Shown here: positions 6,046-51,670 of the stretch, one piece after another | Numbering within the stretch: the stretch's first letter is position 1 | Layout: every line of letters begins with the position of its first letter | NCBI GenBank assembly: GCA_965198065.1 | Contig: CBDAON010000004.1 | Coordinates: forward strand, 2,048,001 to 2,112,000 | Direction: 5' to 3' | From: Longimicrobiales bacterium | GTDB taxonomy: Bacteria > Gemmatimonadota > Gemmatimonadetes > Longimicrobiales > Gaopeijiaceae | DNA: 64,000 nucleotides | Notes under the pieces: generated by a model | What the model saw: the letters and a program-made list of their open reading frames with translations, nothing else | Told to the model about the DNA's origin: nothing | The model's database searches: none | Program-made: the position numbers and the translations under genes

Positions 6046-6118
6046 GCGCCGCTAGCTCAATTGGCAGAGCAACGGACTCTTAATCCGTAGGTTCTAGGTT
6101 CGATTCCTAGGCGGCGCA
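6046..6118 (+). tRNA. tRNA-Lys(CTT)
   Basis: Cloverleaf with acceptor stem GCGCCGC/GCGGCGC, anticodon loop CT-CTT-AA, T-loop GGTTCGATTCC. Confidence 0.95.
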
Positions 6119-6601: not shown

Positions 6602-6847
6602 ATGAAGCTGGCCGTATTCGATGTCGATGGAACGCTGATCCGGAAGAACACGGTGGAGGATGAGTGTTACCTGGCAGCGCTCGCCGCGGTGTTCGATTTC
6701 CAGAATGTTAGCCCGGACTGGGGCTCATATGCTCATGTCACGGACTCGGGCTTAGCGTTGGAGCTCTGTACGCGGCGCTTAGGACGTGCGCCGACGCCGG
6801 AGGAGAGCGCCGCATTCCGCGATACGTACACCAATCTGATTACGGAA
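6602..6847 (+). pseudogene. HAD-family hydrolase N-terminal fragment truncated by IS1595
   Basis: LAVFDVDGTL (HAD motif I); the ORF runs into the IS terminal repeat at 6848. Confidence 0.75.
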
Positions 6848-6882
6848 GGGGATTACATCCAATCGTAACCACGGCCCCGGTG

Positions 6883-7074
6883 CTACGGGGCCTGTTTCTT
6901 GTCCTGCTTCTGCACGAATTTCCACTCCCCGCGCTTCTTCGGCGGCGTCTTGATGAACGCCTTCATGATGTTCGCGGGCGTGTCAGGGATCGGCTCCGGT
7001 AGCGGGTACTTCACCGGACGGCCACGGGGCTGCTTCGTTCCGGTGGGCTTTGATGGCTTATCGTTGGGTGTCAT
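6883..7074 (-). CDS. Small hypothetical protein inside the IS1595 element
   Basis: 63-aa Pro/Lys-rich ORF (RGRPVKYPLPEPIPDTP) with a plausible RBS, near the IS end. Confidence 0.5.
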   Translation of the reverse strand: MTPNDKPSKPTGTKQPRGRPVKYPLPEPIPDTPANIMKAFIKTPPKKRGEWKFVQKQDKKQAP

Positions 7075-7118
7075 GGGTTTCTCATCGCCTCCGGTGACGG
7101 TCCATAAGAAGCCACGGA

Positions 7119-8273: not shown

Positions 8274-8398
8274 TACTTACCACCCCCTACGACGAAAGGC
8301 TTTACTCTTAAGCCGAAAAAGTATAATCATCAACTCATTATTTTAATACTTTGCTTACTGTTAAAATTTGGGGTTTCGGACGGGGCTGGTCGAAATCC

Positions 8399-9340
8399 TC
8401 AATTCGCCACCAGGTCCCGGTAGCGTAGCCGCTTGCCCTCCAGCCCCCGGACGATAGCCCGCATCTGCTGGATGGTGTCGAGCGGTCGGATATTATGGCG
8501 GCCGGAGAACTCGTTGACGTAGCGCTGGAGGTGCTTCGGGGACATCTTGTGGTAGGTGCCGTGGTAGCCGCGCTTGAGCATCGACCAGAAGGACTCCACG
8601 CCGTTCGTGTGGGCCTGGCCGTTCACGTACTCTGACACCGAGTGTTTCACGGTCTCCCGATTGGCGAGGCCATCATACGCCCTCGCTTCGTCCGTGTACA
8701 CCCTGGCCCCATCCGCGACCTGGCCTCGCACGAAACCCTGGAGCGTCGGCCTGTCGGTAGCTTCGACCACGCGAGCAGCCACCCGATTCGTCTCCCGGTC
8801 CTTCGCACCGACGACGGCTGCCTTGCCCACCGGACCCCGGCCCAGGTTCGCCTTCTTGCCTGCGTGCTTGTTCTTCTCCAGCCCACCTACGTAGGTCTCA
8901 TCAATCTCCACCGGACCCTCGAACGGAGCCTGCTGCGTCTCCCACGTCTCCCGGAGCCGGTGTGCTAGGAACCACGCGGCCTTCTGCCCGATCTCTAGAT
9001 CCCGGTGCAGCTTCATGGAGGCTTGACCCTTCAGACCAGTCGCGAGCAGGTAGGAAGCGATCGCCCACACCTGATAGCCGAGATTGCTTCCGGCCATTGC
9101 GGTGCCCGTCTTCACGCTGAAGAACTTCCGGCAACCCTTCTCGCGGCAACGGTAAGGCTGGCTCGGATGCTTCGCGCCTACCTGTACGTTCTCGCCCCCA
9201 CAGTGCGGGCAAGCGGGCTTGCCGTCCCACCGGCACTGAGCGATCCACCGCTCAGCCGTCGCGTCGTCTGGGAACATTCGCATAACCTGAATGAGTGAAA
9301 GCCCCTTCCTAAAGTTCTTGCCGGGTCCTGACTTAGCCAT
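8399..9340 (-). CDS. IS1595-family transposase
   Basis: Zn ribbon CPHC..YRC..C, VEIDETY, VYTDE, HTNGVESFW, YVNEF. Confidence 0.95.
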   Translation of the reverse strand: MAKSGPGKNFRKGLSLIQVMRMFPDDATAERWIAQCRWDGKPACPHCGGENVQVGAKHPSQPYRCREKGCRKFFSVKTGTAMAGSNLGYQVWAIASYLLATGLKGQASMKLHRDLEIGQKAAWFLAHRLRETWETQQAPFEGPVEIDETYVGGLEKNKHAGKKANLGRGPVGKAAVVGAKDRETNRVAARVVEATDRPTLQGFVRGQVADGARVYTDEARAYDGLANRETVKHSVSEYVNGQAHTNGVESFWSMLKRGYHGTYHKMSPKHLQRYVNEFSGRHNIRPLDTIQQMRAIVRGLEGKRLRYRDLVAN

Positions 9341-9352
9341 CGTTTCTCCTAG

Positions 9353-10574
<1,222 letters not shown>

Positions 10575-11113
10575 CAACTGGCTTGCACTCGCTCGTGTGT
10601 GCTCGCTCGCCCTTCGGTAATGCGCCGCTGGGCATCGCGGTTGCGCTCAGGAGGCTCGCTGCGAGCGCGGTTACTCCGGGTCCAAACGCGACTCTTCGCG
10701 AGGCCACCGAGCTACCAGTCCTTCCTTGCGCCAGCGGGTCTTAGGGAGACCAACCGCGGCGCAGGTCGATTCTCTTCAGATCTTCCGCTCCGAGCATCCC
10801 CTACCCTTCGCCTGGACGGTGACGCTGGCAACCTGAATGGAAGCGTAAAGCGTGAACGAGCCATATCCTTGTGCTTCTCCAGCGGGTGGGCCTCGGTCAG
10901 GAGCTGCCTCGCCTGCGTTGGCCCACGGCGAGGAGACTCGGGTCGCGGGTATCACTGCTGCTCAGGGAACCGTTCGATAACGGGCTATGAGGGCCACCTG
11001 CGCAGTCGGTGAGGCACCCGCCCCTCCGCGTCATCCCCGGCGCAAAGTGGGTCGTAAGTGCCTCGATCGGCGGGACACCAACGCCCTCGTGAAGGGAATC
11101 GAGCGGTCAAGGT

Positions 11114-12334
11114 TCAACCTCCCGGAGCAAGCCACCTGAACGCCTGTTCAACGACTTCCACGCCCTGATTCCACACCAATGTTTCCCACTCCTCCGAGTC
11201 CGGATGAAACGCACGTAGCATGCATGTCTTTATCTCTTCCGCCTTCGGATGGTCGGCGCCCCCATGGTGGTGGAGCCAGTTCTCGGCCCTTACCGCCTTG
11301 AATACGTCCATCACCGGTAGCGTACCGAACTCAAGACTCACTGCGGTGACCTCAACGTCGGGAAGCATGCTGGTGATCCCTAACTTGAGAGAGGCATCCA
11401 AGTGAGTGGATACGGACCCACCTGTGACAGTCGAACGCACCCGGTCGGCCCCCCATATCGCCACTGCACGCTGAACGTTGGGTGCGCTCATTGAGTCGTT
11501 CAAGATGATCTCCCCGCTACCGAACGCTCCCAGGCCCGTGTGGATATCGACCAAGACCACGCGTTCCACGTCGGACAGATACCGTTGTGCAATCGACCGG
11601 AGCGTAGAGTTGGACCACGTCTCCGAAGTGCCACCGTAGAACAGTCCGTCCGCGTGGGCGTATTGCCCCCCCTGTACTGCCGCCTGAGCGGCCGCAATAC
11701 CCGCGGTCAGGCGATACCACAGGAGTCGCGCCCACGAGCGTACTTCCGACCCGAACGAGATCGACATAGGTGCAATGACATCGGCGAGATTTTCGTAATC
11801 CGGGTTTTCTGGAGGAGGAATCGTATGGTCCCGGAAGTTCCGGTTAACATCAACGTTGTCTTCGTTGAAGCGTTTCAGGTGCGCCATGCCGTAGGGATTG
11901 ATCCCGTGGATCATCATGAGGCGAACGCCCGTCGGAAGCCGTGAGGTGATTCCTTCGCCAGGAAGACCAGTTTGAATACCTGATCCGGCAAAACCCTCAA
12001 CGCCGTGCGTCCCCGAGCTCAACACAAGGATCGATTTCGCGTCCTCGGGGCCAAAGAGGGCCACATCGGTGAAGAGCGATTCCCCCTGGGGCCCTACCTG
12101 TGGGTTCTGAAAACCCTCGACGATTCCGCCCGCATCCTGGGCCGCGTCAAGGAACCTCTGCCTCGCGACTTCGTAGCTGGATGAGAAATAATCTGCTGTT
12201 CGCACTTCGCTCGCTGCCATGCGTCGAGAGCTGCACTCCGGGCACGCACCATACGTGCCCAAGAAAGCGACGGTCGCGATAACTAAGACCGTGGCTAACC
12301 CCGCTGCTCCGCCAGCCAGGCTTCTTCTGTTCAT
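11114..12334 (-). CDS. DUF2817 / M14-type metallopeptidase, exported
   Basis: SGTHGVEG, NPYG..RFNEDNVDVNRNF, DIHTGLG, LEFGT; N-terminal signal or TM segment. Confidence 0.85.
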   Translation of the reverse strand: MNRRSLAGGAAGLATVLVIATVAFLGTYGACPECSSRRMAASEVRTADYFSSSYEVARQRFLDAAQDAGGIVEGFQNPQVGPQGESLFTDVALFGPEDAKSILVLSSGTHGVEGFAGSGIQTGLPGEGITSRLPTGVRLMMIHGINPYGMAHLKRFNEDNVDVNRNFRDHTIPPPENPDYENLADVIAPMSISFGSEVRSWARLLWYRLTAGIAAAQAAVQGGQYAHADGLFYGGTSETWSNSTLRSIAQRYLSDVERVVLVDIHTGLGAFGSGEIILNDSMSAPNVQRAVAIWGADRVRSTVTGGSVSTHLDASLKLGITSMLPDVEVTAVSLEFGTLPVMDVFKAVRAENWLHHHGGADHPKAEEIKTCMLRAFHPDSEEWETLVWNQGVEVVEQAFRWLAPGG

Positions 12335-12763
12335 GGTTGCTGCCCGCCTGAGTGGGATGCTACAGGAGACTGCGGCGCGGGATGCGGGTAGGCAACTTCG
12401 AGTGAGTCGGCCGGCAACCCCGCCCTAAGGCAGAAGCACCTCCCGGTTCAGCCACACGATGTTGTCCCAACTCAACACCTACTTCGAGGAGTTGCCGTTC
12501 CGGACAATCGGGCTTCCCCTGGAGTTCGAGGCGGGGCTCACGCCCTGAGGACGTGACTCTGGCGACCTCGGTCGCCAAGCGTCGCCGGAGGGAAGCCAGG
12601 CCAGGACGGCGGTGTGTGCCGAGAAGTGTGCCGACTTGGCGGAACGCGGTGACACAACAAGATGCGAGCCGACACGGGGCTGCACACGAAAATCCTTAAA
12701 GCAGAACAGCTATCGGCACTGACAGGACCGGAGAAGGATCCAGAGCCTCCGTCCCGAATCGAT

Positions 12764-12806
12764 CTCTTAATCCGTAGGTTCTAGGTTCGATTCCTAGGCG
12801 GCGCAT
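12764..12806 (+). repeat. attR-like copy of the tRNA-Lys 3' half
   Basis: CTCTTAATCCGTAGGTTCTAGGTTCGATTCCTAGGCGGCGCAT, identical to 6077-6119. Confidence 0.92.
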
Positions 12807-18224: not shown

Positions 18225-18747
<523 letters not shown>

Positions 18748-18804
18748 CTGTTGAGCCTCAGTTTCGAAAATAGTAACGGGATAACAGTAACAGGGCGCTC
18801 AGGT

Positions 18805-19926
18805 ATGCCGAAGCTCTACACAAAGGGTAAGTCCAGGTTTTATGCGGACTTAAGATATCTCGGCCTGGGTCAGCACGCCCTGAAGCCACCGGGGTCTTCC
18901 CGAGCCACACAAGACGAAGCCGAAGCCCTCGTTCTGATGGGTAAGTTGATCGAGCGTCTGAGGCGTGAAGGCGCGCCGGTCAACCGCCCAGGGGACACGC
19001 TTGGTGCGGCTGCTGACGCCTTCCTCCGGCTCAATCCCGGAGGTGTGACGGAGGGATGGCTGCGCGAGCACCGGCACAAGCTCGGTCGCGCTCGTCGGTG
19101 GTTTGGTGACCAGCGTCCGCTTGCGTCGATTAAGCCGAGAGACGTGCGCGCATGGTGGGAGCGTCTCGAGTCCTTGGGATTGGCTTCTGGTACCGTTCGG
19201 CACCATCTGAACGTGCTTTCTTCCCTGTATCGGTTCGCCATCGAGAATGAGATGGTCCCGCCGTCATACAACCCCGTCGCGATGCTCTACCGGAAGCCGT
19301 CTTCGTCAAACGGGCGCATTCAAACCAAGCGGGCGCAGTTCCTAGAGATCGACGAGGCCGCGCGTTTCCTAGACGCGGCCCGGACGCTGACGCGATCTAA
19401 GCGCAGGTGGCTCCTGGACGGCCTCCACGAGATCCTATCGACCTTCCTGTTGACGGGTGGGCGAAAAGCGGAGGTACTAGGGCTCGTGGTTGACGACGTG
19501 GATCTGGACGCAGGCATCGTCCGGTACCGTCCGAATGACTTCCGGCCACTCAAGACGCCTTGGGCGGAGCGCACCGTACCCCTTTGGCCGCAACTGCGGG
19601 AGATCCTGGTGCCGTGGCTCCAAGGTCGAGATCCGGACGAGTTGCTCTTCGAGGGTCCGGTTGGCGGGATGATTCACGACCTACGGAAGGCGCTCAAGGC
19701 TACTTCGGAAGCGTCGGGTATCGCGGTCACCGGCGTCACCATCTTTCGCCACACCTACGCCACGGCTCGGCTCCAGACGACCGACAACGGGAAGCAGATT
19801 TCACTCTGGACCGTCGCCAAGGAGCTGGGCCACAAAACCGTCTCACGGGTCGAAGACACATACGGCCATCCGAGCCACTACCGGCCTCGTGGTGAGGTCG
19901 TGGAGTATCAGCTCCGTACGACGTAA
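18805..19926 (+). CDS. Tyrosine recombinase/integrase adjacent to tRNA-Arg
   Basis: TGGRKAEV (R), PLKT (K), IFRHTY, LGH, TYGH (Y). Confidence 0.9.
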   Translation: MPKLYTKGKSRFYADLRYLGLGQHALKPPGSSRATQDEAEALVLMGKLIERLRREGAPVNRPGDTLGAAADAFLRLNPGGVTEGWLREHRHKLGRARRWFGDQRPLASIKPRDVRAWWERLESLGLASGTVRHHLNVLSSLYRFAIENEMVPPSYNPVAMLYRKPSSSNGRIQTKRAQFLEIDEAARFLDAARTLTRSKRRWLLDGLHEILSTFLLTGGRKAEVLGLVVDDVDLDAGIVRYRPNDFRPLKTPWAERTVPLWPQLREILVPWLQGRDPDELLFEGPVGGMIHDLRKALKATSEASGIAVTGVTIFRHTYATARLQTTDNGKQISLWTVAKELGHKTVSRVEDTYGHPSHYRPRGEVVEYQLRTT

Positions 19927-40254: not shown

Positions 40255-41364
40255 TGACCTGCCCCCAAAAGCGGTACCACCTAGAGTGTTAGTCCAAGCA
40301 CCTCCTTTTGGCTGGGGGGTGGTCCAAGAAGCAGAGGTAGGTTGAGCAGCTTTGGGTCTGGCCGGATCGCTTCGGGGGCCGGGGGTCGATAACCCAGAGA
40401 GCTGTGCGGTCGATGCGTGTTGTATTCGCGCCGCCACTGCTCGATCAGCACCTTCGCCTCCTCCAGCGAATAGAAGATTTCGCGCTTCAGCAGCTCGTTT
40501 CAGAGCGTGCCGTTAAAGCTCTCATTGTAGCCGTTCTCCCACGGGCTGCCCGGCTCGATGAACAGCGTCTTCACGCCTAGCTCACCGAGCCACTGCCGGC
40601 CGTCCATCATGCGTCCGGTCCGCCACGAAGTCATACGCCCATACATGGTGTCGGTACAGGGGCCGCAGTCGGATACAAGAACCGTCGGTCAGCCACAGCC
40701 TTCCTCGTTTCGGCTGCTTACTTGGCACCTTGAGCCCCTCCTGTCTCCAGATCCGCTCCACCCGCTTGTGGTTCACGGCCCAGCCCTCCGTCCTCAGCAT
40801 CCCCGTCACCATCCGGTACCCGCAGCGCCCGAACCTGCGAGCCACCTTCACCACGTCCTCTCTCAGCGCCTCCTCATCTTCGCTTCGCTTCGGTATCCGA
40901 CGCTGCGTCGAGCGTGCCTGGCCCAACACCCGGCACGCCTTGCGCTCACTCACCCCAAGCCGCTGGCGTACTTGCACCACGCAGCGTCTGCGCCACTCGG
41001 GGCTCAGTAGTTTCCCTCGGAGGCTTCCTTCAAGATCAGCTTGTCCAGCGTCAGCTCTGCCACCGCCCGCTTCAGCTGTTGGTTCTCCTTCCCTCGAGCT
41101 CCTTGAGACGCTTCGCCTGGCTCAGCTTCATTCCCCCGTACTCCCGCCGCCATCGGTAGTACGTTTGCTCGCTCACCCCCAGGTCTCGCCACACCTCTTT
41201 GGTCGTATTGCCGTTCGCCAGGGCCACCTCCGCCTTGCGTAGCCGGTTGATGATCTGTGCCGGACTCAGCCTCTTTGGTGCGGCCATTGTGCCCTCCCCT
41301 TTCGTGTCTTGACCCCGTCCAGATTCTAAAACTGGACTCGGTCTCGTTTTAGGGGGGTAGATCA
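40255..41364 (-). mobile_element. IS3-family element type B, copy 3 (internal deletion of about 177 bp)
   Basis: Same ends as copy 2; the segment encoding LRSDNGPEF is missing, junction near 40597. Confidence 0.92.
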
Positions 41365-41376
41365 GTAGCACCACGC

Positions 41377-41521
41377 GGGGCCATAGCTCAGTTGGGAGAG
41401 CGCCTGCTTTGCAAGCCCCTTTCTGGCGTTGGTGGGCGTCGGTCAGCGCTGGAATCGTTGAATCGAGCGTTGGTGAGCGCTGGCCAGCGTCGGTGGGCGT
41501 TGGCGCAGTTTTTGGCACAGT
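41377..41521 (+). repeat. tRNA-Ala 5'-half copy (41377-41416) plus 105-bp conserved arm, copy 1
   Basis: First 40 nt identical to 50473-50512; the arm matches 45658-45762 with 9 mismatches. Confidence 0.92.
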
Positions 41522-41865
41522 CTTCTCAGCGCGAGTCCGCCAGGAATCATCGGACGAACTGACGCTGAGCGTTCGGGGTGCATGGCCGATTGCTCCACTC
41601 CTCTGAGAGCACCAGAGGAGCCCTGAGAGTTGCTGCGGCTCGGCGCCGAGCCGTCTCCCGCGTGTTTCCCTCGCCGCTGAAATCCCACAACCCAGGCGCC
41701 TTCTCGGAGCGCCTACCCATTGAGTGTCCGTAGGGGTTGGGTGCGCCGCTTGGTCAAGAATGAAGTGGTCGGATGGGGAGACCCGCCAACTCCTGAAGCA
41801 CCGAGCGGATGCGCGAACTGAATCAGAATGGCGGAGACCCCTGGCACCTGTGGCGATTCGGAGCA

Positions 41866-41883
41866 GTAATGATTATCTGTTAC
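41866..41883 (+). promoter_or_regulatory. Putative Fur/Zur-family operator
   Basis: AT-rich imperfect palindrome GTAATGATTATCTGTTAC about 70 bp upstream of a metal-uptake operon. Confidence 0.5.
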
Positions 41884-41951
41884 CATCCCGCTGGAGCTGC
41901 CGTGGGCGTCGGACGGTCTCAAGTGAGGAGCGAAGGGAGGATCATCCGGCC

Positions 41952-43208
41952 ATGCACCGAAGGCTGCTCTCGCACGTGTGTCTGGCGGCGGTCTGCGCCG
42001 CCTCCGCCGGGCGTGCCCCATCGGTTCAGGCGCAGTCTGCCTTCCGGACGGAGACGACGGTGGAGACCGTACCGGCGCCCCGGCAAGCGCCGCAGCAGCA
42101 GGGCTTCATGAACGTCGGGTTCGTCGGGATGGTGGATTTCGGGTGGTCCACGGAGCCGGACGTGGCCTCGCTCCAGCTTGGCGCGCACGACCCCAAGGTC
42201 CGGGGCTTCACCATTCCCAACGCCGAGCTGACGCTGAATGGGGCGGTGGACCCCTTCTTTCAGGGATTCTCGGCCTTCGTGTACCAGGTGGACGAGGAAG
42301 GGGAGACCGGCGTCGAGCTCGAGGAGATGTACTTCCTGACGATGTCATTACCGTGGAACCTCCAGCTCAAGGGCGGCCAGTTTTTTGCCGAATTCGGCCG
42401 GCAGAACCCGCAGCACCCCCACTCGTGGGCGTTCGTGGACCAGCCCCTGGTGCTCACTCGTCTGCTTGGCCCGGACGGGCTTCGAAGTCAGGGAGCGAGG
42501 CTCTCCTGGCTCCTGCCCACAGCCTGGTACGTCGACACGATGCTGTCGGTTCTGAACAGCGCCGGGGAAGCCGCGTTCAGCTTTCGCTCCGATGAGTCGT
42601 CCGAGATCCACGGGGGCGTGGTCGCGGGGCGCGACGTGCAGGGGGTAGGAGAACTCCTCCTCCTCCCTCGGATCGCGACGTCCGTCGACCTGACGGATAC
42701 TCAGACCGTGCTGGCGGGCGCCTCCGGCGCATTCGGTCCGAACAACTCGGGTCTGGGAGCCCGGACACGGGTCTTCGGCGTGGACGTCTTCTGGAGGTGG
42801 CGCTCCGCGTTCGCTTTCCAGGGGTTTCCCTTCGTGTCGTTCCAGGCCGAGGCGCTCGGCCGCCAGTACGAGGCCGTGGAGCGCGAATCGCCGGAGGATC
42901 CCGATGTGGCGTTGCCTTCGGAGACCCTGAGAGATTGGGGCACGTACGCGGAGATCCTCTGGGGGATCCGGCCGCGTTGGGTCGCGGGCGTGCGGGGAGA
43001 CCTGGTGAGCGGTGAGGACGCCGCGTTCGAGTCCGATCTCCGCAAGGATCGGTACCGGCTTTCGCCGAGCGTCACCTGGTATCCTAGCGAGTTCTCGAAG
43101 GTTCGCCTGCAGTACAACCTGGATGACCGGGAGGGGCTTGGTACGGATCATTCCGTGTGGATGCAGGCGGAGTTCATTCTGGGGGCCCACGCGGCCCATC
43201 AGTTCTAG
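41952..43208 (+). CDS. Outer-membrane beta-barrel associated with Zn/Mn uptake
   Basis: Signal peptide, HDP..GF, FGRQNPQHPHSW.FVDQP, PSEFSKVRLQY, terminal GAHAAHQF. Confidence 0.75.
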   Translation: MHRRLLSHVCLAAVCAASAGRAPSVQAQSAFRTETTVETVPAPRQAPQQQGFMNVGFVGMVDFGWSTEPDVASLQLGAHDPKVRGFTIPNAELTLNGAVDPFFQGFSAFVYQVDEEGETGVELEEMYFLTMSLPWNLQLKGGQFFAEFGRQNPQHPHSWAFVDQPLVLTRLLGPDGLRSQGARLSWLLPTAWYVDTMLSVLNSAGEAAFSFRSDESSEIHGGVVAGRDVQGVGELLLLPRIATSVDLTDTQTVLAGASGAFGPNNSGLGARTRVFGVDVFWRWRSAFAFQGFPFVSFQAEALGRQYEAVERESPEDPDVALPSETLRDWGTYAEILWGIRPRWVAGVRGDLVSGEDAAFESDLRKDRYRLSPSVTWYPSEFSKVRLQYNLDDREGLGTDHSVWMQAEFILGAHAAHQF

Positions 43209-43224
43209 CCCGAAGGAGATGGCC

Positions 43225-44148
43225 ATGAACGGAGTCGCTCGGATCCTCGGCGTCGTGGGCTGGCTAACGGCGTACGGGATGGGTGCGCCCCTCGCGGGCC
43301 AGCTGAGGGTCATCGCGACCACGCCGGATCTCGCGGCGCTCGCCCGGGAGATCGGTGGGAATCGAGTCGACGTGCAGGCTCTGGCGAAGCCCACCGAGGA
43401 TCCACACTTCGTGGACGCGAGGCCCAGCTACATCGTGACCCTCAACCGGGCCGACGTCCTCGTCGAGGGGGGCGCGGACCTCGAGATCGGCTGGCTGCCC
43501 CCGCTTCTCCAGAGTGCTAGAAACGCCAAGCTAACGGCCGGAGCCCCCGGGCGCATTCCCGCTTCCTCTGTGGTCACCATGCTCGAGGTGCCCGCCACGC
43601 TGGACCGCTCGCGCGGGGACGTCCATGCCCTCGGAAACCCCCACTTCATGCTCGACCCGGTGAACGTGCGCCTGATCGGAGCCCTGATAGCAGACCGTTT
43701 AGCGCAGGTGGACCCTCCCTCGGCATCGGTGTACCGGAACAACCTTCAGGACTTCAACGCACGGCTCGACACGAAGCTGGCGGAATGGCAACGCCGGCTC
43801 GCTCCACTTGCGGGCGCGGAGATCGTCACGTACCACCGGGATTTCGTCTATCTGGCAGATCGGTTCAACCTGAACGTCGTGGCCACTCTGGAGGAGAGGC
43901 CCGGGATCGCGCCCTCGCCCGCGCATCTTGCCGACGTGATCGCCACGATGCGGTCCGGAGGCGTACGCGCGATCCTCGTGCAGCCGTTCCAGAACCGTAG
44001 GACCGCCGAGACCGTAGCCCGGCAAACGGGTGCGGTGGTCCTGGACATGCCGCAGCAGCCGGGGGTATTGCGCGGAACGGACGGCTACTTCGATCTGATG
44101 GATTACCTCGTCGGCGCGCTCGCGGGCGGGCTGAGTGAGGGTGGGTGA
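43225..44148 (+). CDS. Metal ABC transporter substrate-binding protein (ZnuA/TroA-like)
   Basis: EDPHFV, GNPHFMLDP, TYH, PGIAPSPAHL. Confidence 0.9.
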   Translation: MNGVARILGVVGWLTAYGMGAPLAGQLRVIATTPDLAALAREIGGNRVDVQALAKPTEDPHFVDARPSYIVTLNRADVLVEGGADLEIGWLPPLLQSARNAKLTAGAPGRIPASSVVTMLEVPATLDRSRGDVHALGNPHFMLDPVNVRLIGALIADRLAQVDPPSASVYRNNLQDFNARLDTKLAEWQRRLAPLAGAEIVTYHRDFVYLADRFNLNVVATLEERPGIAPSPAHLADVIATMRSGGVRAILVQPFQNRRTAETVARQTGAVVLDMPQQPGVLRGTDGYFDLMDYLVGALAGGLSEGG

Positions 44149-44978
44149 GCTTGGACCTCGAGATTGCATGGGCCGTTATGAAATGGCCGCTTGTGGCCCT
44201 CCTCGTGCTTCCCCCCCTGCTTGTCTATCTCGGCCTGCACGTGGTTCTACGCGAGGTGATCTTCGTGGACCTCGCGCTGGCGCAGGTCGCGGCCCTGGGC
44301 ACAAGCCTCGCGCTGCTCATCGGATACGACTTCCGCGACAGCCCCACGTTTTGGATCTCCCTGGGTGTTGCGTTCCTGGGGGCCGCCCTCTTCAGCTGGA
44401 CCCGGGGCCGGGAGAAGGGACCGGTTCCCCAGGAGGCAATCATCGGGATCACGTTCGTCGTCGCGGCCGCGGGCGTGATTCTCCTTCTCAGCAGGGTGGC
44501 GGGTGGGCGGGAAGAGCTCGAGCACCTGCTCACGGGCGACATCCTGAACGTGACGACCGGGGAGGTGGGGCAGCGGGCCCTCCTGTTTGCAGTACTGGGA
44601 GGATTCTACACGGCCTTCCATGAGCGCTTCGCCCTCATCTCCACCAATCCGGAGGAAGCCTTTGCCCGAGGAACGCGTGTTCGCCTGTGGGACTTCCTCT
44701 TCTACGCGGCCTTCTCCCTCGTGGTCGTGAGCTTCGTTCGGGTGGCTGGGGTCCTGGTCACCTTCGCCTATCTCATCGTACCAGCGGTCTGCGCGGTCAC
44801 TCTCGTCGGCGGATGGCTCAGGCGGCTCGCCGTGGGCTCGGGCATCGCGGTCGCGGCGAGCGTCCTGGGCCTGGGCGCGTCCTACTGGTGGGACCTGCCC
44901 ACCGGTGCTGCGGTCGTATGCACTTCGGGGGTGGTGCTCGTCCTGGTCATGACTTCTTCGACCCTACGGGGGTCCTGA
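44145..44978 (+). CDS. Metal ABC transporter permease (ZnuB-like)
   Basis: GLHVVLREVIFVDLALAQVAALG, EAIIGI, GDIL, DLPTG. Confidence 0.88.
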   Translation: MSLDLEIAWAVMKWPLVALLVLPPLLVYLGLHVVLREVIFVDLALAQVAALGTSLALLIGYDFRDSPTFWISLGVAFLGAALFSWTRGREKGPVPQEAIIGITFVVAAAGVILLLSRVAGGREELEHLLTGDILNVTTGEVGQRALLFAVLGGFYTAFHERFALISTNPEEAFARGTRVRLWDFLFYAAFSLVVVSFVRVAGVLVTFAYLIVPAVCAVTLVGGWLRRLAVGSGIAVAASVLGLGASYWWDLPTGAAVVCTSGVVLVLVMTSSTLRGS

Positions 44979-45096
44979 ACGAAGGACGCGCTCTAACTCG
45001 CCGCTCCGACGGCCTCCCGAACCTCTCCGGCCGGCTCCGTCGCCGGATAGCGAAGCGGTGTCAGGGTCTGATTGAGACCATCCTTGGAGATGTCCT

Positions 45097-45497
45097 ATGG
45101 TAGGGAAAGACCCAGTGCGTGGTAGTTTTGATCGGTGCGAGGCCGCGGGGAACTTCGCAGAGCAGTTCTATGCTGTCTTTCTCAACTCATCACCCGAGAT
45201 CGGACCGCTGTTTGCGATGACGGATTTCGAGAACCAGCGAAAGCTGCTCCGAGCGACTGTGTACATCATGGTCACGCGGAGCGTAGACGACGTTCAAGCG
45301 CGAGAGACGCTGGAGAGGATCGGCTATTCGCATGGACGCACGCAACTTGAGCATTAGACCGGAGTTGTACGAAGTCTGGCTAGACAGCGTGTGCCAGACC
45401 GTGAAGCAAATGGATCCGGACTGGACAATCGGAAGTCGAACGTGAGTGGCGTGATCGGTTACGACCGGGTATTGATTTGATTACGTCCTTCTACTGA
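45097..45497 (+). pseudogene. Single-domain globin, frameshifted
   Basis: SFDRC..FYAVFLNSSPEI..LF..TDFENQ..ERIGYSH; continues IRPELYEVWLDS..DP..EW in shifted frames. Confidence 0.75.
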
Positions 45498-45618
45498 CAA
45501 AGCATCTTCAGGCAGTTATCGCGTCAGCAATCGCTTGTTAGCACGCGCCTTGCTCGCGTGGGTGAGCACGTGCCCGAACCGCGCAAAGGACGTAACATAC
45601 TAAGCAGTAAGGACTTAC

Positions 45619-45762
45619 GGGGCCATAGCTAGTTGGGAGAGCGCCTGCTTTGCAAGCCCCTTTCTGGCGTTGGTGGGCGTCCGTAGGCGCTGGAATCGTT
45701 GAATCGAGCGTTGGTCAGAGTGTGCCAGCGTCGGTGGGCGCTGGCGCAGTTTTTGGCACAGT
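45619..45762 (+). repeat. tRNA-Ala 5'-half copy (45619-45657, one-base deletion) plus 105-bp conserved arm, copy 2
   Basis: GGGGCCATAGCT-AGTTGGGAGAGCGCCTGCTTTGCAAGC followed by the arm shared with 41417-41521. Confidence 0.92.
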
Positions 45763-45865
45763 TTTCAGTACCTTGACCTACAGGGGTGATGCAAGCGGAT
45801 CGGAGAGCAACTCCGATGGCACTGAAGCCCTGTTCGTGACGGAGAAGACGGGGATCGGGTAAAGC

Positions 45866-47040
45866 GTGAGCGCCAAGAGTCGCCTCCGTAAGATCCTGCG
45901 GTCGATCGCGGTAGCGGGCGCAGTCTTTGGCGTCGTTATGGGCCTCTACGCCAGCACATTCGTCCTGTCGTACGGCGCGTTGTTCGCCGATGCCGATCCT
46001 CTCCTAGTGACGGATGTTGGTCGGGTTACCCCGGCACTCGTTGAAGCGATATACGAGGTTCAAGACGTCGATGAGATTGGGGCTGCCCTCGCCGACGCGA
46101 GAGAGCGGGGCCTCAAAGTGTCAATCGCGGGGAGTCGACACAGCCAGGGGGGGCAAACGTACGCGGAGGGCGGGGTCGTTCTGTCCATGCGTGGGTTCAA
46201 TCGCATCCTCGCGGTTGACCCGGTGGGCCAGACCATAACTGTAGAGAGTGGAGCTACGTGGGACGAAGTCCAGCGAGCGCAAGGCATCGCCATGATGATT
46301 GCTCGCCCATCGATCGATCCAGATCCCGACGAATTCTTGAGGGAGATGGTGGTCGTGACGTGGCGTCGCGACGCCCCCGGCATCGATGGGGAGTTTGAAT
46401 TGACCGAAGAAGAGCGAGTTCTGCGCGACCGATTCTTCTTCGGCCTTTCGCGGAGATTCGATTGGGCGAAGTCTCTGCGATGGAACCTGCAGAAGCGGTG
46501 GAGCCCACCCTCTCGGAGATTCAGCTGATCTCACGGAACAATGCGATGCGCCCGCCGCTCGCTCCCGTGGCATTCCTCGACTACGAGTCGCCGTCGGACA
46601 CCGACATCCTGCAAGAGTACTTCGTTCCCGTGGACAGCTTCGTCGCGTTCATGGATCGGTCTCGAAGCATCTTCGAGGAGGGAGACGTCAATCTGTTGAG
46701 CGCGACCGTGAGATTCGTGACGCCCGACTCTACCGCGATGCTGGCTTATGCTCCCCGCGAAGAAATGTTTGCCGTTGCCCACCTGACGAATGTTGGACTG
46801 AGCCCCTCGGATCAAGCGAGGACCGAACGAGTCACGCAGGATCTCGTCACGAGTCCCCTCGATTTTTTGGGCACGTATTACCTGACGTATCAACTTTACC
46901 CTACAGTGACGCAGCTTCGGCGAGCATACCCGACGGCGGATAGTGCCTTCTCGCGAAAGAGATTCTATGATCCGACGGAGCTATTCAGTTCTATGAACGA
47001 TACGCGGGTTCGTAGGGATCGGCCTGAGACCCGCGAATAA
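45866..47040 (+). pseudogene. FAD-binding oxidoreductase with internal deletion and frameshift
   Basis: SIAGSRHSQGGQ, ITVESGATWDEVQ, then a jump to the C-terminal region; DILQEYFVP, GTYYLTYQ, KRFYDP. Confidence 0.75.
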
Positions 47041-47076
47041 GCGTGTGGTTACCTCCTCCCCCGTAAGAGAAAAGAG

Positions 47077-48744
47077 ATGGCCTACGACACCGACGACGTC
47101 GCTCTTCACGCGGCCTACTACTGGGAGAAGACCACGCCGGACCGGATCTGGCTGACGCAGCCTGCCCCCGGCGGACGTATCGAGGAGTACACCTGGAGGT
47201 CGGCGATGGACGAGGCGCGGCGCATGGCGGCGCATCTCCTTTCCGTCGATCTCTCTCCCGGGAGCCACGTGGCGCTCTTCTCCAAGAACTCCGCGTGGTG
47301 GGTCATGGCCGACCTCGCGATCTGGATGGCCGGCCACGTCTCCGTCCCGGTCTACCCAACGCTGACGCCGCAAACGATTCGCCAGATCCTCGAGCACTCG
47401 GAGGCCCGGCTCGTCTTCATCGGCAAGCTCGACGATTTCGCCTCGATGGAGCCCGGCATCCCGGCCGACCTGCCGCGCATCCTGACGCCCTGCGCGCCGG
47501 AGACGCACGGCGATCGCTGGGAGGACGTCGTCGCGCGGACCGAGCCGCTGCTGGAGGACGTCAGGCGAGGCGAGGACGAGCTCGGAACGATCATCTACAC
47601 CTCGGGAACCACGGGCATCCCGAAGGGCGTGATGCACTCCTTCGGGAGCATGGGCGTCGGGGCGCGCGGCGCCATCGCAAGCGTGAGCGTGAAGTCCGAC
47701 GACCGGATGCTCTCCTACCTACCGCTCGCACACGCGTTCGAGCGCTGGCACGTCGAGACGGTCTCGCTCTTGGCAGGATTCCAGATCTTCTTCGCCGACA
47801 GCCCGGACAGCTTCGTGCAAGACCTCCGGCGCGCTCGCCCCACCCTCTTTATCTCGGTGCCGCGGCTCTGGCAGAAGTTCCAGGCGGGCGTCTTCAAGAA
47901 GACGAAGCCGGACCGGCTCGCCCGCCTGCTCAAGGTCCCGATTGTCGGACGCATCGTCCGCAGGAAGGTGCTCGAGGGTCTCGGTCTGGACGCCGTACGC
48001 GTTGCCGGATCCGGATCGGCGCCGATTCCCGGTGAGCTGATCGAGTGGTACCGCGACCTGGGCCTAGAGCTGATCGAGGGCTACGGCATGACCGAGAACT
48101 TCTGCTACTCTCACCAAAGCCGTCAGGACGAGGTGCGACCGGGATACGTCGGGCGCGCGTACGAGGACGTCGAGTGCAGGATCAGCGACGAAGGCGAGGT
48201 CCTGGTCAAGAGCCCGGCCAGCATGCTGGGCTACTACAAAATGCCGGAGGAGAGCGTGGCGTCGTTCACGGAAGACGGGTTCCTCAAGACCGGCGACCGC
48301 GGCGAGATCGACGAGCGAGGACGGCTTCGGATCACCGGGCGCGTCAAGGAGCTCTTCAAGACGAGCAAGGGCAAGTACGTCGCGCCAGCACCCATCGAGA
48401 GCAAGCTGCTCGTCCACGAGGCGATCGAGATGGTCTGCGTCGCCGGTAACGGCCAGCCCCAACCACATGCCATCGTCATGCTCTCGGACGAGGCTCGGAG
48501 CCGCGCCGAAGGATCTGGCCGGGAGGAGGTCGAGCGCGCGCTGACGGAGCACCTGCAGAGAGTCAATCCGGAGCTCGATCACCACGAGAAGCTCAGCTTT
48601 CTCTCGATCGTGCCGGACGTGTGGGCCGTGGAGAACGGCTTCCTGACGCCGACGCTGAAGCTGAAGCGTGTGGTCATCGACGACACCTACGGTCCGTCGA
48701 TCGCGAGCTGGTACGCGCGGAAGACCAGAATTCTCTGGATCTGA
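47077..48744 (+). CDS. Long-chain fatty acid--CoA ligase (AMP-binding)
   Basis: IIYTSGTTGIPKGVMH, SYLPLAH, EGYGMTE, LKTGD, LTPTLKLKR. Confidence 0.92.
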   Translation: MAYDTDDVALHAAYYWEKTTPDRIWLTQPAPGGRIEEYTWRSAMDEARRMAAHLLSVDLSPGSHVALFSKNSAWWVMADLAIWMAGHVSVPVYPTLTPQTIRQILEHSEARLVFIGKLDDFASMEPGIPADLPRILTPCAPETHGDRWEDVVARTEPLLEDVRRGEDELGTIIYTSGTTGIPKGVMHSFGSMGVGARGAIASVSVKSDDRMLSYLPLAHAFERWHVETVSLLAGFQIFFADSPDSFVQDLRRARPTLFISVPRLWQKFQAGVFKKTKPDRLARLLKVPIVGRIVRRKVLEGLGLDAVRVAGSGSAPIPGELIEWYRDLGLELIEGYGMTENFCYSHQSRQDEVRPGYVGRAYEDVECRISDEGEVLVKSPASMLGYYKMPEESVASFTEDGFLKTGDRGEIDERGRLRITGRVKELFKTSKGKYVAPAPIESKLLVHEAIEMVCVAGNGQPQPHAIVMLSDEARSRAEGSGREEVERALTEHLQRVNPELDHHEKLSFLSIVPDVWAVENGFLTPTLKLKRVVIDDTYGPSIASWYARKTRILWI

Positions 48745-48835
48745 CGCGAGCGTCACGGAAGCTTTCTTACGATTCGCGCAACGCCGACTGACTCCCGAGC
48801 CCACCGTTCCACTCCTGCACCTGGGGCTAGCTCGC

Positions 48836-50341
48836 ATGAACCCACAGGCTGAAGTCGGTCCTGCACCAACTGCGTACCAGAGGCTCCGGCGGGGGCTGGC
48901 TTTTCTCATGTGGCTTTTCTTTCGTCGAGTGGAGGTGGTGGGTCTGGAGGACCTCCCCAACGACCGGGGCGGCATCTTGGTCGCTTGGCACCCCAACGCG
49001 CTCATCGACCCAGCGCTGATTCTCAGCGCCTTCCCCGGGCAGGTCGTGTTCGGGGCTCGGCACGGCCTCTTTCAGTTACCTTTGATCGGCCACCTCATGC
49101 GAGCCATCGGCACCGTCCCGATTTACCGTCGTCAGGATACCTCCGAAGGGGACACGGAGGTCGCCAGGAGGAAGAACTCTGACAGTCTCGCGGCGCTGGC
49201 CGACCGAATCGCCGCCGGATCGTTCTCTGCGCTCTTCCCCGAGGGCATCTCTCACGACGCCCCCTTTCTGCAGGATATCAAGACCGGGGCCGCCCGTTTG
49301 TATTACCAGGCCCGCATGCGCACCGAGGGCCATCGACCACCGCCGGCACTGATACCCGTCGGACTCCACTACGCGAAAAAGCACCTGTTCCGGTCCAAGG
49401 CTCTGGTGGTGTTCCATCCGCCGCTCACGCTCCTGGCGGAGCTCGATGTCACCCCGCCGGACGAAGAGGATCCCGAGAAACTTCGGGAGTTGGCGCGCAA
49501 GCTGACTCGGGAAGTCGAGCGCTCTCTCAAGGCCGCAGTCCTCGAGACCGAAAGCTGGGAGCTTCACAGCCTCCACCACCGCACCGCGAAGCTCATCCGC
49601 GCGGAGCGTGCCCACCGCGCCGAGGCGAACCCTGGTGCGATCACGATGGATGAGGAGGTGTTGGGATTCGCGCGCGTGTGGACGGCCCGTCAGCATCTTA
49701 TCGGCTCGCATCCCGAGCGGGATGAGCAGTTGACGAAGCGAGTCAAGAGATACGACAGGATGCTGAGAGCACTCGCCATCGAGGACCACGAGATCGACTA
49801 CCCCCCGCCCGTGATCGGCGGCTGGCTCTTGGCTGGTCTCATGCTTAAGGCGGTCTCCGTGGTCGTACTGCTGCCGCCCTTCCTGCTGTTCGGGGCGCTC
49901 GTGAACCTCCCACCCGCGTTGCTGGTCATCGCGGGGGCGCGGCGGGCGGCAAAGGAGCCCAAGGACATCGCGTCGCTGAAGCTGCTCGGCGGCGTGGTTG
50001 CGTATCCGCTGGCGTGGGCCATCTGGGCGTTGCTCGCGGGATGGGGGATCGTCCAGGCGCAGACGATCGCCCCCTGGGTGCCAGCCCAACCGATTCTCGG
50101 CGGCGCCGTCATGCTGGCGCTCTGTGTGGCCAGCGCGGTCGTGATGCTCCTGTACTGGGAGTTGGCCGTCGGAACCTTGCGCGCCTTGCGCGTGCGCCTG
50201 ACCAGGGGGCGGCACGGTCGGGCGTTGACTCGCCTGCGAGCGGAGCGGTCACGCCTCTGTGACGAGATCTTGGCTTTCGCGGAAGGAGTCGAGTTGCCGG
50301 GGCAGGTTCTGCCTAGCGGACGGCTGTCCCGCAACCGCTGA
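48836..50341 (+). CDS. Lysophospholipid/glycerol-3-phosphate acyltransferase with C-terminal TM helices
   Basis: HPNALID (HX4D), PIYRRQD, FPEGISH, KTGAAR. Confidence 0.88.
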   Translation: MNPQAEVGPAPTAYQRLRRGLAFLMWLFFRRVEVVGLEDLPNDRGGILVAWHPNALIDPALILSAFPGQVVFGARHGLFQLPLIGHLMRAIGTVPIYRRQDTSEGDTEVARRKNSDSLAALADRIAAGSFSALFPEGISHDAPFLQDIKTGAARLYYQARMRTEGHRPPPALIPVGLHYAKKHLFRSKALVVFHPPLTLLAELDVTPPDEEDPEKLRELARKLTREVERSLKAAVLETESWELHSLHHRTAKLIRAERAHRAEANPGAITMDEEVLGFARVWTARQHLIGSHPERDEQLTKRVKRYDRMLRALAIEDHEIDYPPPVIGGWLLAGLMLKAVSVVVLLPPFLLFGALVNLPPALLVIAGARRAAKEPKDIASLKLLGGVVAYPLAWAIWALLAGWGIVQAQTIAPWVPAQPILGGAVMLALCVASAVVMLLYWELAVGTLRALRVRLTRGRHGRALTRLRAERSRLCDEILAFAEGVELPGQVLPSGRLSRNR

Positions 50342-50472
50342 GCCAAACGCGTGCGGCGCTCGGTTCGAACCCTCCGATCGACCCACGGCCCGCGCCCGTG
50401 TGGTTTTTGGCACAGTTGGAGTATGGGCCCGATGACGCAAAGGACGGAAAGCACCAACTAGAAGGGACTTAG

Positions 50473-50545
50473 GGGGCCATAGCTCAGTTGGGAGAGCGCC
50501 TGCTTTGCAAGCAGGAGGTCACGGGTTCGAATCCCGTTGGCTCCA
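50473..50545 (+). tRNA. tRNA-Ala(TGC), intact
   Basis: Acceptor stem GGGGCCA/TGGCTCC with G3:U70, anticodon loop TT-TGC-AA, T-loop GGTTCGAATCC. Confidence 0.96.
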
Positions 50546-50602
50546 TTGAAGTTACGGGATATGCTTAGTCGGATTCCCGCTATTTATTCCCGCTAATTGG
50601 GC

Positions 50603-51670
50603 TCAGGAGCGGGCTCTCCGCCGGCGCTCGAGGGCCTTCCGGAGTTGCCCCTCGTCGGCCCGCTGGTAGCACTGCAGCACCGTCTGGGCCGTCTTCCAGC
50701 CGCCGAGTTCGCAGAGCACCTTGAGCGGCTGGTTCATCAGGTCCGAAGCGAACTTCCGCCTCAGGGAGTGCCAGCCGCGGCCACGCTTCGGCGCGAGCCC
50801 GGCGAGCTCTTGCGCCTTCTCCCACCAGTCGCGCGCCAGCGAACGGCTCACGCACTTCGACGGGTCCTTCGGCGCTGGCAGTAGGGGAGCGTCTCCGATC
50901 CCGGGGTTCTCCCTCCGTGCCTCTTCCAGGGCACCAAGCGCTTCGGTGCTCACCGGGGTCCGGTGCTCGTACCCGGTCTTCTCATGCTCCCCACGCCACC
51001 GGATCACGCCGGCTTCCAGGTCGATGTCCGACCATCCAAGCTGCCGGATCGCACCGATGCGGTGTCCCGTCTCGTGCGCCAGCACCAGAGCCACGCGAAA
51101 GCGCCAGCCCATCGCTATCGACACTCCCAGCAGGGCCTCGTATTCCGCCTCAGTGAGCAGCACCCGGACCGGGTTTTTTTCCCTGGGTGGCTTCAGGCCT
51201 TTCAGAGGGTTTGCATCGAGGAGGAGCCTGCCCTCCTCGTCTCTCGAGTTCACGGCCCAGTTGAAGACCGCGAGCAGGAACCTCACGTCGTATTCGATGG
51301 TTCGATCGGACACCGGCTTGCCGCTCGGTCCGGCATTGCCCGCACGCCGCGCCCGGATGAACCGATCCCAGTCACGCTGGGACAGTGTGGCTGGTTTCCG
51401 GTCCCTGCCGAAGAACTTGAGGAACATCCTCATCGCGGCCCGATCGTACCTTCGGGACCGCTCGCTCTTGGTGGGAGTCACCTCTTCACCGTAGATGTCA
51501 AAAAGCGTCTTCAGGGTGAGTGGCTTGGGCTCGGCATTCGCCTTGTCCTGGAGTTCCGACGGTGTGCTGCCGGCAGCGACTTCGTCCGCCTGCCTCTTGG
51601 CCCGGGCCCAGTCTTGATGCCCGAGCGATCTACTCAACCTGCGCCCGTCCTCCCGCCACTCGATCTGGAT
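50603..51670 (-). CDS. Tyrosine recombinase/integrase convergent on tRNA-Ala; N-terminus possibly truncated
   Basis: TGHRIGAI (R), EKTG (K), HSLRRK, GGW, CYQ (Y); the frame extends upstream of the TTG at 51637 (IQIEWREDGRRLSRSLGH) without a clear start. Confidence 0.85.
   Translation of the reverse strand: MQIEWREDGRRLSRSLGHQDWARAKRQADEVAAGSTPSELQDKANAEPKPLTLKTLFDIYGEEVTPTKSERSRRYDRAAMRMFLKFFGRDRKPATLSQRDWDRFIRARRAGNAGPSGKPVSDRTIEYDVRFLLAVFNWAVNSRDEEGRLLLDANPLKGLKPPREKNPVRVLLTEAEYEALLGVSIAMGWRFRVALVLAHETGHRIGAIRQLGWSDIDLEAGVIRWRGEHEKTGYEHRTPVSTEALGALEEARRENPGIGDAPLLPAPKDPSKCVSRSLARDWWEKAQELAGLAPKRGRGWHSLRRKFASDLMNQPLKVLCELGGWKTAQTVLQCYQRADEGQLRKALERRRRARS

Follow-up and report, generated by a model that had tools for sequence, protein, structure and literature searches.

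Two tandem gene blocks upstream of tRNA-Ala(TGC) in a Gemmatimonadota bacterium: likely stranded leftovers of back-to-front mobile islands

Results and discussion

Organization of the locus

The window analyzed here is a 64,000-nucleotide stretch of the genome of a Gemmatimonadota bacterium (G000 in our comparisons), where two gene blocks are arranged in tandem on the 5' side of tRNA-Ala(TGC). The intact tRNA gene (50473..50545, + strand) is the only copy in the G000 assembly, and each block opens with the front half of this tRNA followed by the same 105-nt arm. Module 1 begins at copy A of the 5' half (41377..41416, +), an exact match to nucleotides 1-40, and continues into arm copy A (41417..41521, +), a right (P') arm judging by its counterparts in relatives, in which 10-bp repeats are followed by two 11-bp sites ending in TTGGCACAG and then by a hairpin with a T run. 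It closes with a truncated left (P) arm (45582..45618, +), of which 37 core-proximal nucleotides are left, with no TTGGCACAG site. The junction between the modules is copy B of the 5' half (45619..45657, +). The sequence-only reading had placed the first 40 nt of the tRNA at both positions; this is exact for copy A, while copy B has 39 nt, with one C of the D stem missing, and the same letters are found in a contig of run X12. The 105-nt right arm copy B (45658..45762, +) differs from copy A at 9/105 positions, as had been described, and BLAST of one tRNA half plus arm unit against the other gives E = 4e-57, far beyond chance. Module 2 ends in a left arm (50396..50472, +) with TTGGCACAG at 50407-50415, at the family's spacing from the tRNA, and a degenerate outer site; in the autonomous islands of relatives, the integrase gene lies immediately left of the equivalent arm. 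The end motif reported as common to both modules is real but short, with 27/37 nt identical between 45582-45618 and 50436-50472. On the left, the array is cut off by an IS3-type insertion sequence copy (40255..41364, -), 12 nt before copy A, with no target duplication at its flanks. The arrangement is supported by contigs from two runs of two studies, one of them perhaps the source sample: over 41494-45427, and over 45711-47942 or beyond, they show 0-2 differences from the window; therefore, the array is not an assembly artefact.

The metal-uptake block of module 1 starts with a gene for a 418-aa secreted-looking protein of no Pfam or NCBIfam family (41952..43208, +), followed by a ZnuA-type metal-binding protein (43225..44148, +; PF01297, E = 2e-53) and an ABC-3 metal permease (44145..44978, +; PF00950, E = 3e-26). 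Seawater runs X1 and X3 contain only pieces of this block, 94-96% alike, from which we infer no habitat. After the block comes a globin-like pseudogene (45094..45498, +) with a frameshift close to 45347; in related strains, the sequence is one base shorter both at 45347 and near 45428. Module 2 carries a pseudogene of an FAD-linked oxidoreductase in two frames (FAD-binding; 45866..47040, +), with 6 nt at 46278-46285 in the window versus 348 nt in one related strain, an acyl-CoA ligase (AMP-binding; 47077..48744, +; PF00501, E = 1e-71) and a membrane acyltransferase (48836..50341, +; PF01553, E = 2e-14). The earlier cargo calls hold for ZnuA, the permease, the oxidoreductase, the ligase and the acyltransferase, and the globin call is weak (NCBIfam, E = 0.007). 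Decay is thus evident in the truncated right end of module 1 and in two broken cargo genes. Neither module encodes a recombinase, as had been noted, and we found no integrase or satellite remnant in modules 1 and 2.

The integrase behind the tRNA

The sequence-only reading missed a tyrosine integrase of an unrelated family (50603..51669, -), whose open reading frame at 50603-51637 (PF00589, E = 1e-17) ends 57 nt behind the tRNA. Compared with its 387-aa paralog, the gene is cut at 51669 and has lost roughly 32 codons from its start. Between it and the tRNA lies the end of an unrelated 3'-type element with GCGGGA repeats (50546..50602, -), whose far end, with a host-type tRNA 3' half, is at G000:C4:1219124. 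This element uses the same anticodon loop and has replaced the tRNA 3' half; therefore, both halves of tRNA-Ala(TGC) are likely derived from mobile elements, the 5' half from module 2 and the 3' half from the element behind it. In that case, each side of this tRNA gene would have been replaced by a different element family.

The position of this integrase, together with the anticodon loop that its element shares and the recurrence of the same pairing at tRNA-Pro(TGG) in G000, could suggest a fixed, IntI-like platform enzyme that loads cassettes upstream. We regard this explanation as largely refuted and highly improbable: the enzyme is one of a multi-copy family with GCGGGA repeats, not TTGGCACAG, at its ends, some 32 N-terminal codons are missing, the far end of its own element has been located, it gives no match to the integron-integrase model TIGR02249, and the arms of relatives are paired with a different clade. 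As a helper for the array it was rejected on its different arm motif and its truncation.

A conserved attachment site in the order

A conserved attachment site, recognizable by its 10-bp repeats and paired TTGGCACAG sites, occurs at tRNA-Ala(TGC) and tRNA-Pro(TGG) in other genera, and the 105-nt sequence is its right arm. The tRNA 5' half joined to the arm was detected at 13 sites in 9/401 genomes of the order, and the left arm before tRNA-Ala or tRNA-Pro at 17 sites in 15/401; the reversed control in the first search and the control in the second returned 0. Our first genome-wide pattern had yielded this arm in only 3/60 matches (L141, L145, and L146), the others being chance hits or intact tRNAs. 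Across 15 copies, the arm length varies by one indel only, the 10-bp period scores 0.41 versus 0.28 +- 0.01 in shuffled sequences, and the spacing from arm site to tRNA is 54-61 nt in 29/30 cases. Identity of the tRNA fragments stops at the anticodon loop in 2/20 and 1-2 nt beyond it in the remainder; the shortest stretch shared by the 20 fragments stops at the loop, and the displaced 3' fragment begins there. These boundaries place the crossover at a tRNA subsite, the anticodon loop.

A search of G000 with the repeat unit, proposed earlier as a check, revealed five arm copies in total, three of them 316-330 kb from the array and one of these without any tRNA piece. This finding, and the stable RNA fold of arm A (z = -3.5) with its terminator-like end, would be expected if the arm were MITE-like, or encoded a small structured RNA, and lay by chance behind tRNA fragments, with the stack produced by duplication and IS rearrangement. 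We consider this very unlikely. The anticodon core is abutted by four of the five G000 copies and by all 9 arm sites elsewhere in the order, and the one copy lacking the core belongs to a tandem gene duplication. In addition, no terminal inverted repeat is present among the repeats found, and the folds vary between copies and rest on G-T pairs with no compensatory pattern. The arm was likewise rejected as an attC site, since no fold is conserved, and Rfam matched the tRNA only.

Tandem accretion is not restricted to the two units described here: internal junctions were identified in G010, G330, G370, L145, L300, and L330. Units without an integrase but otherwise complete, 3.4-15.7 kb long, are present in G000, G010, G208, and L330. 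The left arm of the distal unit is truncated both here and in G010, and cargo often stops 25-250 nt from the arm, oriented toward the tRNA. An 8.5-kb block with 98.4% identity is common to G208 and G385, but it was not used as proof of transfer between genera because the left end of the G385 contig looks chimeric and that genome has a second tRNA-Pro(TGG). A search for the original locus by synteny of the tRNA-Ala flanks with the genes of 17 relatives gave no match near any arm copy.

The cognate integrase clade and the integrase-free majority

Among the 16 sites outside G000, five have an integrase gene starting right beside the left arm, and its product is either P0001 itself or shares 64-69% identity with it. 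Going by this gene neighborhood, the P0001 clade of Gemmatimonadota tyrosine integrases is likely the cognate of the TTGGCACAG arms. One example is a 24-kb satellite-like island (L145 and L176) with both arms, the integrase, an excisionase-like gene, a primase, and a terminase small subunit; five L176 proteins have no match in G000 at E 1e-4. The pair formed by this common, unstudied clade and the attachment site for tRNA-Ala(TGC)/tRNA-Pro(TGG) could possibly be put to use for integration in this phylum, where tools are few.

In G000 we found no cognate integrase, the best match having 42% identity. The integrase of the tRNA-Arg island (18751-19926) was judged an unlikely helper on sequence: it belongs to the same superfamily, but it is 42% identical and has no TTGGCACAG alongside. 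It is important to consider that the completeness of G000 is 87.6%, and a helper could therefore be missing from the assembly. The proposed dependence of the modules on an integrase supplied from outside is consistent with these results. The viral contigs searched contained no match to the cognate integrase.

The remaining 11/16 sites have no integrase, which makes the integrase-free form the majority of the family, and the same is true of 5/8 metagenome loci of the array's type with 1.5 kb of upstream sequence. Signs of integrase loss are nevertheless present: 2/21 arms without the gene retain the region that holds the integrase promoter in an autonomous island, although 19/21 have no remnant of it, and in a second arm-sharing group 5/32 integrases survive only as remnants of 30-60 aa.

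The principal competing explanation is that cassettes without integrase form a lasting class of their own: they would already lack the gene on arrival, be excised and inserted by a passing helper with matching specificity, and turn over like those of integrons at a fixed tRNA. Its appeal lies in the integrase-free majority, the complete integrase-free units, the cargo placed close to the arm and pointing to the tRNA, the internal junctions in several genera, the abundance of the helper clade (more than 100 clusters with 52-77% identity), and run X16, where the same right arm leads into a different sequence. However, the exchange that it requires is not what the cargo displays. The metal block, the globin, and the acyltransferase each have different flanks in runs X16/X17, so the strain comparison suggested earlier did reveal other neighbors, but in a mosaic rather than unit by unit. 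The truncated arm of module 1 also counts against it, as does the finding that, with the query used, no integrase above 55% identity turned up in 15/20 genomes bearing the arm. The circle junctions expected of mobile units were absent from the contigs of 7 runs, in which rare variants are dropped. A joint between 41364 and 45642 in runs X12/X14, with a side of 30 nt and depth equal to the genome, is better read as copy A mapping onto copy B than as excision. Finally, copy B lacks the D-stem C; therefore, precise excision of module 2 alone would damage the only tRNA-Ala(TGC), and such a damaged spare half would be a simple ratchet that fixes cargo in the chromosome. With its broken cargo genes and no cognate helper found in G000, the array gives no support to the intact, exchangeable cassettes first envisaged, and we hold the cassette explanation to be rather doubtful.

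Proposed mechanism

The explanation that we favor, and consider reasonably probable, is that islands entered tRNA-Ala(TGC) in succession, each integrating at the anticodon loop with reversed geometry, probably by means of the P0001 clade, which would bind the TTGGCACAG arm sites, and that what is left is a stranded, CIME-like accretion. The incoming circle would consist of left arm, tRNA 5' half, and right arm; crossover in the 7-nt anticodon loop would rebuild the tRNA at the downstream end and leave the earlier 5' half and right arm upstream, so the newest unit would adjoin the tRNA. The sites of relatives agree with the elements of this scheme that had already been put forward: an attP with the tRNA 5' half, crossover at the anticodon loop, inverted geometry, and tandem stacking. 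The units probably descended from satellite-like islands that lost their integrase, excisionase, primase, and small terminase genes and captured cargo, as in CIMEs, and they would be stranded because no cognate integrase copy was found in G000. The model would require a putative element-supplied promoter in the left arm, where -10 matches are not enriched (7/30 versus 6.8 +- 2.1 shuffled).

The integrase-free sites and loci (11/16 in the order, 5/8 in metagenomes) and the 19/21 arms without promoter remnant were counted against this best explanation, as was the lack of integrase or satellite remnants in modules 1 and 2, and such a majority also fits units that never had an integrase. A more tentative proposal is tRNA-anchored gene capture, in which most tRNA-Ala(TGC)/tRNA-Pro(TGG) units might be cassettes loaded by satellites and locked in by the damaged spare half, excision being lethal, with a tRNA built from halves of two unrelated elements; we see this as possible but unlikely.

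Comparison with known systems

The comparison of the array with an integron finds some likeness in its recombinase-free blocks, genes mostly in one direction, and a newest unit that would lie beside the fixed site. In contrast to integrons, it is made of 4-5 kb multi-gene units with long, double-stranded, lambda-type arms and no resident cognate enzyme found. The analogy fails for IntI, as P0001 reaches 15.8 bits where the cut-off is 265, and for attC: DNA folding z was below -2 in 2/15 arms on one strand and 1/15 on the other, with no conserved fold. A scan for attI/Pc gave one promoter-like site in 9.4 kb versus 1.1 expected, and the arms end in terminator-like hairpins.

CIMEs have lost integration and transfer genes, keep their att sites, and form tandems by integration at whichever end carries the target gene (PMC5704250). 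Our modules resemble them in having no integration or transfer genes and in accreting at one target; by sequence, module 2 keeps both arms, its outer left site being degenerate, while module 1 has lost the arm sites of its right end and thereby part of one att end. CIMEs differ in their position at gene 3' ends, their ICE/IME parents, and their occurrence in Firmicutes (PMC5704250), whereas this stack lies upstream of a tRNA 5' end and its parent looks like a phage satellite. The ssrA islands of Dehalococcoides are also tandem, and 15 have no integration module and are possibly cis-mobilizable according to their authors; they lie downstream of ssrA, with a 20-bp repeat and a serine recombinase (PMC3146451), in contrast to the upstream position, 40-nt half, long arms, and tyrosine integrase of the array. 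Tycheposons and PICI-like satellites have a tRNA-targeting integrase, an excisionase, and a primase, and in tycheposons islands grow as transient elements leave cargo (bioRxiv 10.1101/2020.12.28.424599). These genes are all present in the autonomous relative L176, but our modules carry no hallmark genes, and the phylum is different, as the integrase clade appears to be.

Inverted 5'-fragment islands and integrase-less tandem units have each already been described. Zhao and Williams reportedly presented the first island with a 5' tDNA fragment in 2002. In Islander, 159/3919 islands have a 5' fragment and 125 are tandems; the 5'-fragment islands show anticodon-centered crossover, sizes of 2-200 kb, and tandem arrays (PMC4383910). 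The 5' fragments of our array likewise lie on the upstream side of the intact gene and point in its direction. The difference is that Islander demands an integrase per unit, so both modules would be rejected, while relatives have one at 5/16 sites. The arm and the P0001 clade were not found in print, and the 159 islands may include members of this clade. Island finders that require an integrase in every unit miss blocks of this kind, the majority form of the family.

Anatomy of the array at tRNA-Ala(TGC)

The two-module array is real. The intact tRNA-Ala (50473-50545, ARAGORN) is the sole TGC gene among the assembly's 50 tRNAs. The sequence-only reading had placed the first 40 nt of this tRNA at 41377 and 45619; the copy at 41377 is exact, but that at 45619 has 39 nt, with one D-stem C missing. 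The same reading was right that a common 105-nt arm (right arm; 9 of 105 positions differ) follows both fragments and that both modules close with a common motif (left arm; 27 of 37 terminal nucleotides identical). Pfam searches confirmed its account of the cargo (ZnuA, ABC-3, FAD-binding, AMP-binding, and acyltransferase) and found no recombinase within either module. It had also argued against an assembly duplicate, and contigs of two runs match the array: those of run X12, which may be the source sample, span 41494-45667 and 45711-50502 with 0 differences, and those of run X14, from another study, piece together 41494-45427 and 45711-50346 (0-2 differences). An insertion sequence without target duplication ends 12 nt ahead of the 41377 copy.

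Module content is variable, by blocks smaller than a module. In runs X16 and X17 the metal block, globin, and acyltransferase sit in other contexts, and 726 unlike letters follow the arm in X16. Decay is evident: the globin of module 1 (41377-45618) is frameshifted, and the oxidoreductase of module 2 (45619-50472) lacks 342 nt relative to X17. The closing arm of module 1 retains just 37 nt, without the arm-site motif TTGGCACAG; the distal unit of G010, a related genome, is cut likewise. Three further arm copies occur at about 1759-1774 kb of the same contig (C4): one with the full 40-nt 5' half, one with a 16-nt core, and one with no core, duplicated with its gene. They look like a detached piece of an older stack; a synteny comparison of the tRNA-Ala flanks with relatives' genes gave no match close to any of the arm copies. 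Their region (loci L001/L002, C4:1757632-1773530, minus strand) carries cytochrome-c-like genes in tandem alongside GtrA-like, FAD oxidase, and monooxygenase genes and is interrupted by insertion sequences.

The arms as a probable attachment site

Among 401 genomes of the order, the anticodon core plus right arm was found in 9 (13 sites, four of them in the source genome, G000), and TTGGCACAS 50-80 nt ahead of a tRNA-Ala or tRNA-Pro 5' end in 15 (17 sites, one in G000); reversed control patterns gave 0 matches for either search. The double target is explained by the anticodon stem sequence, which both tRNAs have in common. In a separate pattern search, three of 60 matches were true arm matches, from Longimicrobiales or Gemmatimonadetes.

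Lambda-type attachment sites place 10-bp repeats and paired direct sites at constant distances on both sides of a core. The arms have this layout and are putative integrase-binding sites: a single internal gap interrupts the alignment of the 15 right arms, which have a 10-bp periodicity (0.41 vs 0.28 ± 0.01 after shuffling) and terminate in two 11-bp sites in direct repeat; the same pair ends the left arms, and the spacing from arm site to tRNA is 54-61 nt in 29 of 30 cases. The crossover proposed at the anticodon loop is supported and lies within its 7 nt, because the stretch shared by fragment and tRNA does not go past the final loop base in 2 of 20 cases and reaches one or two bases further in 18, and the displaced tRNA-Ala 3' fragment starts at the first loop base. 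Searches of the arm detected no conserved DNA or RNA fold and no Rfam match, and left arms showed no -10 enrichment. Three tRNA-Pro fragments with the right arm (L227:1658, L228, and L229; two in genome G208, one in G241) share a D-loop start position, with unrelated sequences upstream; this start may mark a further breakpoint or a site targeted by some other element.

The integrases

The modules' cognate integrase likely belongs to the clade of P0001, a tyrosine integrase. Loci L145 and L176 share a contig on which a 24-kb island bears the 5' half and arm at one end and P0001 at the other, its gene beginning beside the left arm and transcribed away from intact tRNA-Ala; excisionase-like, primase, and small-terminase genes are also present. 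At left-arm sites outside G000, the clade lies directly beside the arm in 5 of 16 (L203, L206, L208, L209, and L210, the last being the L176 site) and not in 11. With P0001 as the query, matches of at least 63% occurred in 5 of 21 genomes searched, every one at the arm, and 15 of 20 arm-bearing genomes gave no match above 55%. The clade is common in metagenomes (nearly all of the best 120 clusters listed are 52-77% identical), with no match in viral contigs. In G000 (3.05 Mb, 87.6% complete, 34 PF00589 matches), the query recovered only a 42% identical tRNA-Arg island integrase (window 18751-19926) and a 29-residue remnant. The former appears intact and follows tRNA-Arg(CCG) (window 18624-19926); displaced 3' halves of this tRNA are on the opposite strand at C4:1880-1892 kb.

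A minus-strand PF00589 gene that the earlier reading lacked ends 57 nt behind tRNA-Ala. We rejected it as the modules' helper: its family is multi-copy, with GCGGGA repeats at its ends, adjoining several tRNAs and other sites, and it aligns with its paralogs only as far as 51669, which implies the loss of about 32 N-terminal codons. Its relatives are mostly Longimicrobiales or Gemmatimonadetes. The opposite end of this family of elements lies at C4:1219124 and is followed by a tRNA-Ala 3' half more similar than the window's own to the genes of 14 of 15 relatives; the original 3' half was therefore likely displaced by the GCGGGA element, and the 5' half likely by the modules. The working tRNA-Ala is thus probably chimeric, with each half brought in by an element.

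The GCGGGA family adjoins tRNA-Ile or tRNA-Val from either side (L023, L044, L052, L055, L056, and L092), and thus uses both geometries; some tRNAs bear its end motif on both sides. The two-sided layout recurs at tRNA-Pro(TGG) (C4:118045-119931): upstream, behind a cytochrome-c-like gene, a related left arm matches window 50410-50438 at 25 of 29 nt, and downstream lies a GCGGGA family end; a 3' half lies at C4:2291723, and no 5' half was found.

Integrase-free units and known systems

Our metagenome scan yielded at least 121 arm loci. At least 15 are of the modules' type, with an integrase in 3 of the 8 having 1.5 kb upstream; at least 102 (L254-L374) form a second, tRNA-Pro(TGG) type with a paired TTGGCACAG motif, and at least 4 fall outside both. 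An unrelated, convergent integrase stands beside the motif in 32 of 39 second-type loci (5 of the 32 are 30-60 aa remnants), and at least 13 loci of this type are internal junctions. In G010, L102/L103 represent a second 5'-half family at tRNA-Ala(TGC), stacked over 10.9 kb with other arm repeats (GTGCACAC) and an integrase remnant adjoining the tRNA.

The integrase-free units also fit cassettes travelling with transient helpers: arms without integrase are the majority, complete units without one occur in G010, L330, and G208 (where only the arm end was seen), and 19 of 21 integrase-free arms have no remnant of the promoter region that drives the integrase gene in autonomous islands. The two exceptions, the G010 proximal unit and L145, keep this region but not the gene, in line with decay. 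Against these travelling cassettes, contigs of 7 runs contained no circle junctions, though contigs lose rare forms. If module 2 alone were excised precisely, the damaged half at 45619 would become joined to the 3' half, an outcome that would likely be selected against; that mobilisation in trans and such a ratchet operate jointly is doubtful.

We regard the array as two reversed tRNA islands stacked in tandem, both lacking an integrase, whose parent family can be identified; it extends the known range of 5'-fragment islands and CIME-type accretion. It is not an integron, and the proposed likeness to one is not retained: no IntI was found, and the arm has no conserved fold. Islander reports 5' fragments in 159 of 3919 islands, 125 tandems, and an integrase filter (PMC4383910), a review of IMEs defines CIME and describes accretion (PMC5704250), Dehalococcoides carries 15 tandem islands without an integration module (PMC3146451), and a tycheposon study describes transient elements that leave cargo behind (preprint, 10.1101/2020.12.28.424599); 5'-distal integration is known but rarer (PMC6563490), and 3' geometry is usual (PMC10865867, PMC9897764). 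In the mainly open-access literature that our searches covered, we found no paper on the P0001 clade, on the arm, or on stacks of 5' halves without integrases in Gemmatimonadota.

Elsewhere in G000, a 7.5-kb unit (C4:921537-929053, minus strand) is bounded by the intact tRNA-Gln(TTG) gene and a 5' fragment of that tRNA; its arm is of another kind, and none of its ORFs encodes an integrase. At tRNA-Lys(CTT), window 6046-12806 holds an ordinary island of the 3' type that has a 43-nt repeat and contains a tandem duplication of 131 nt. Two detached tRNA-Val(TAC) 5' fragments lie at C4:534770 and 2444063, and the genome has many displaced tRNA halves at a distance from the genes they match, which points to extensive rearrangement.
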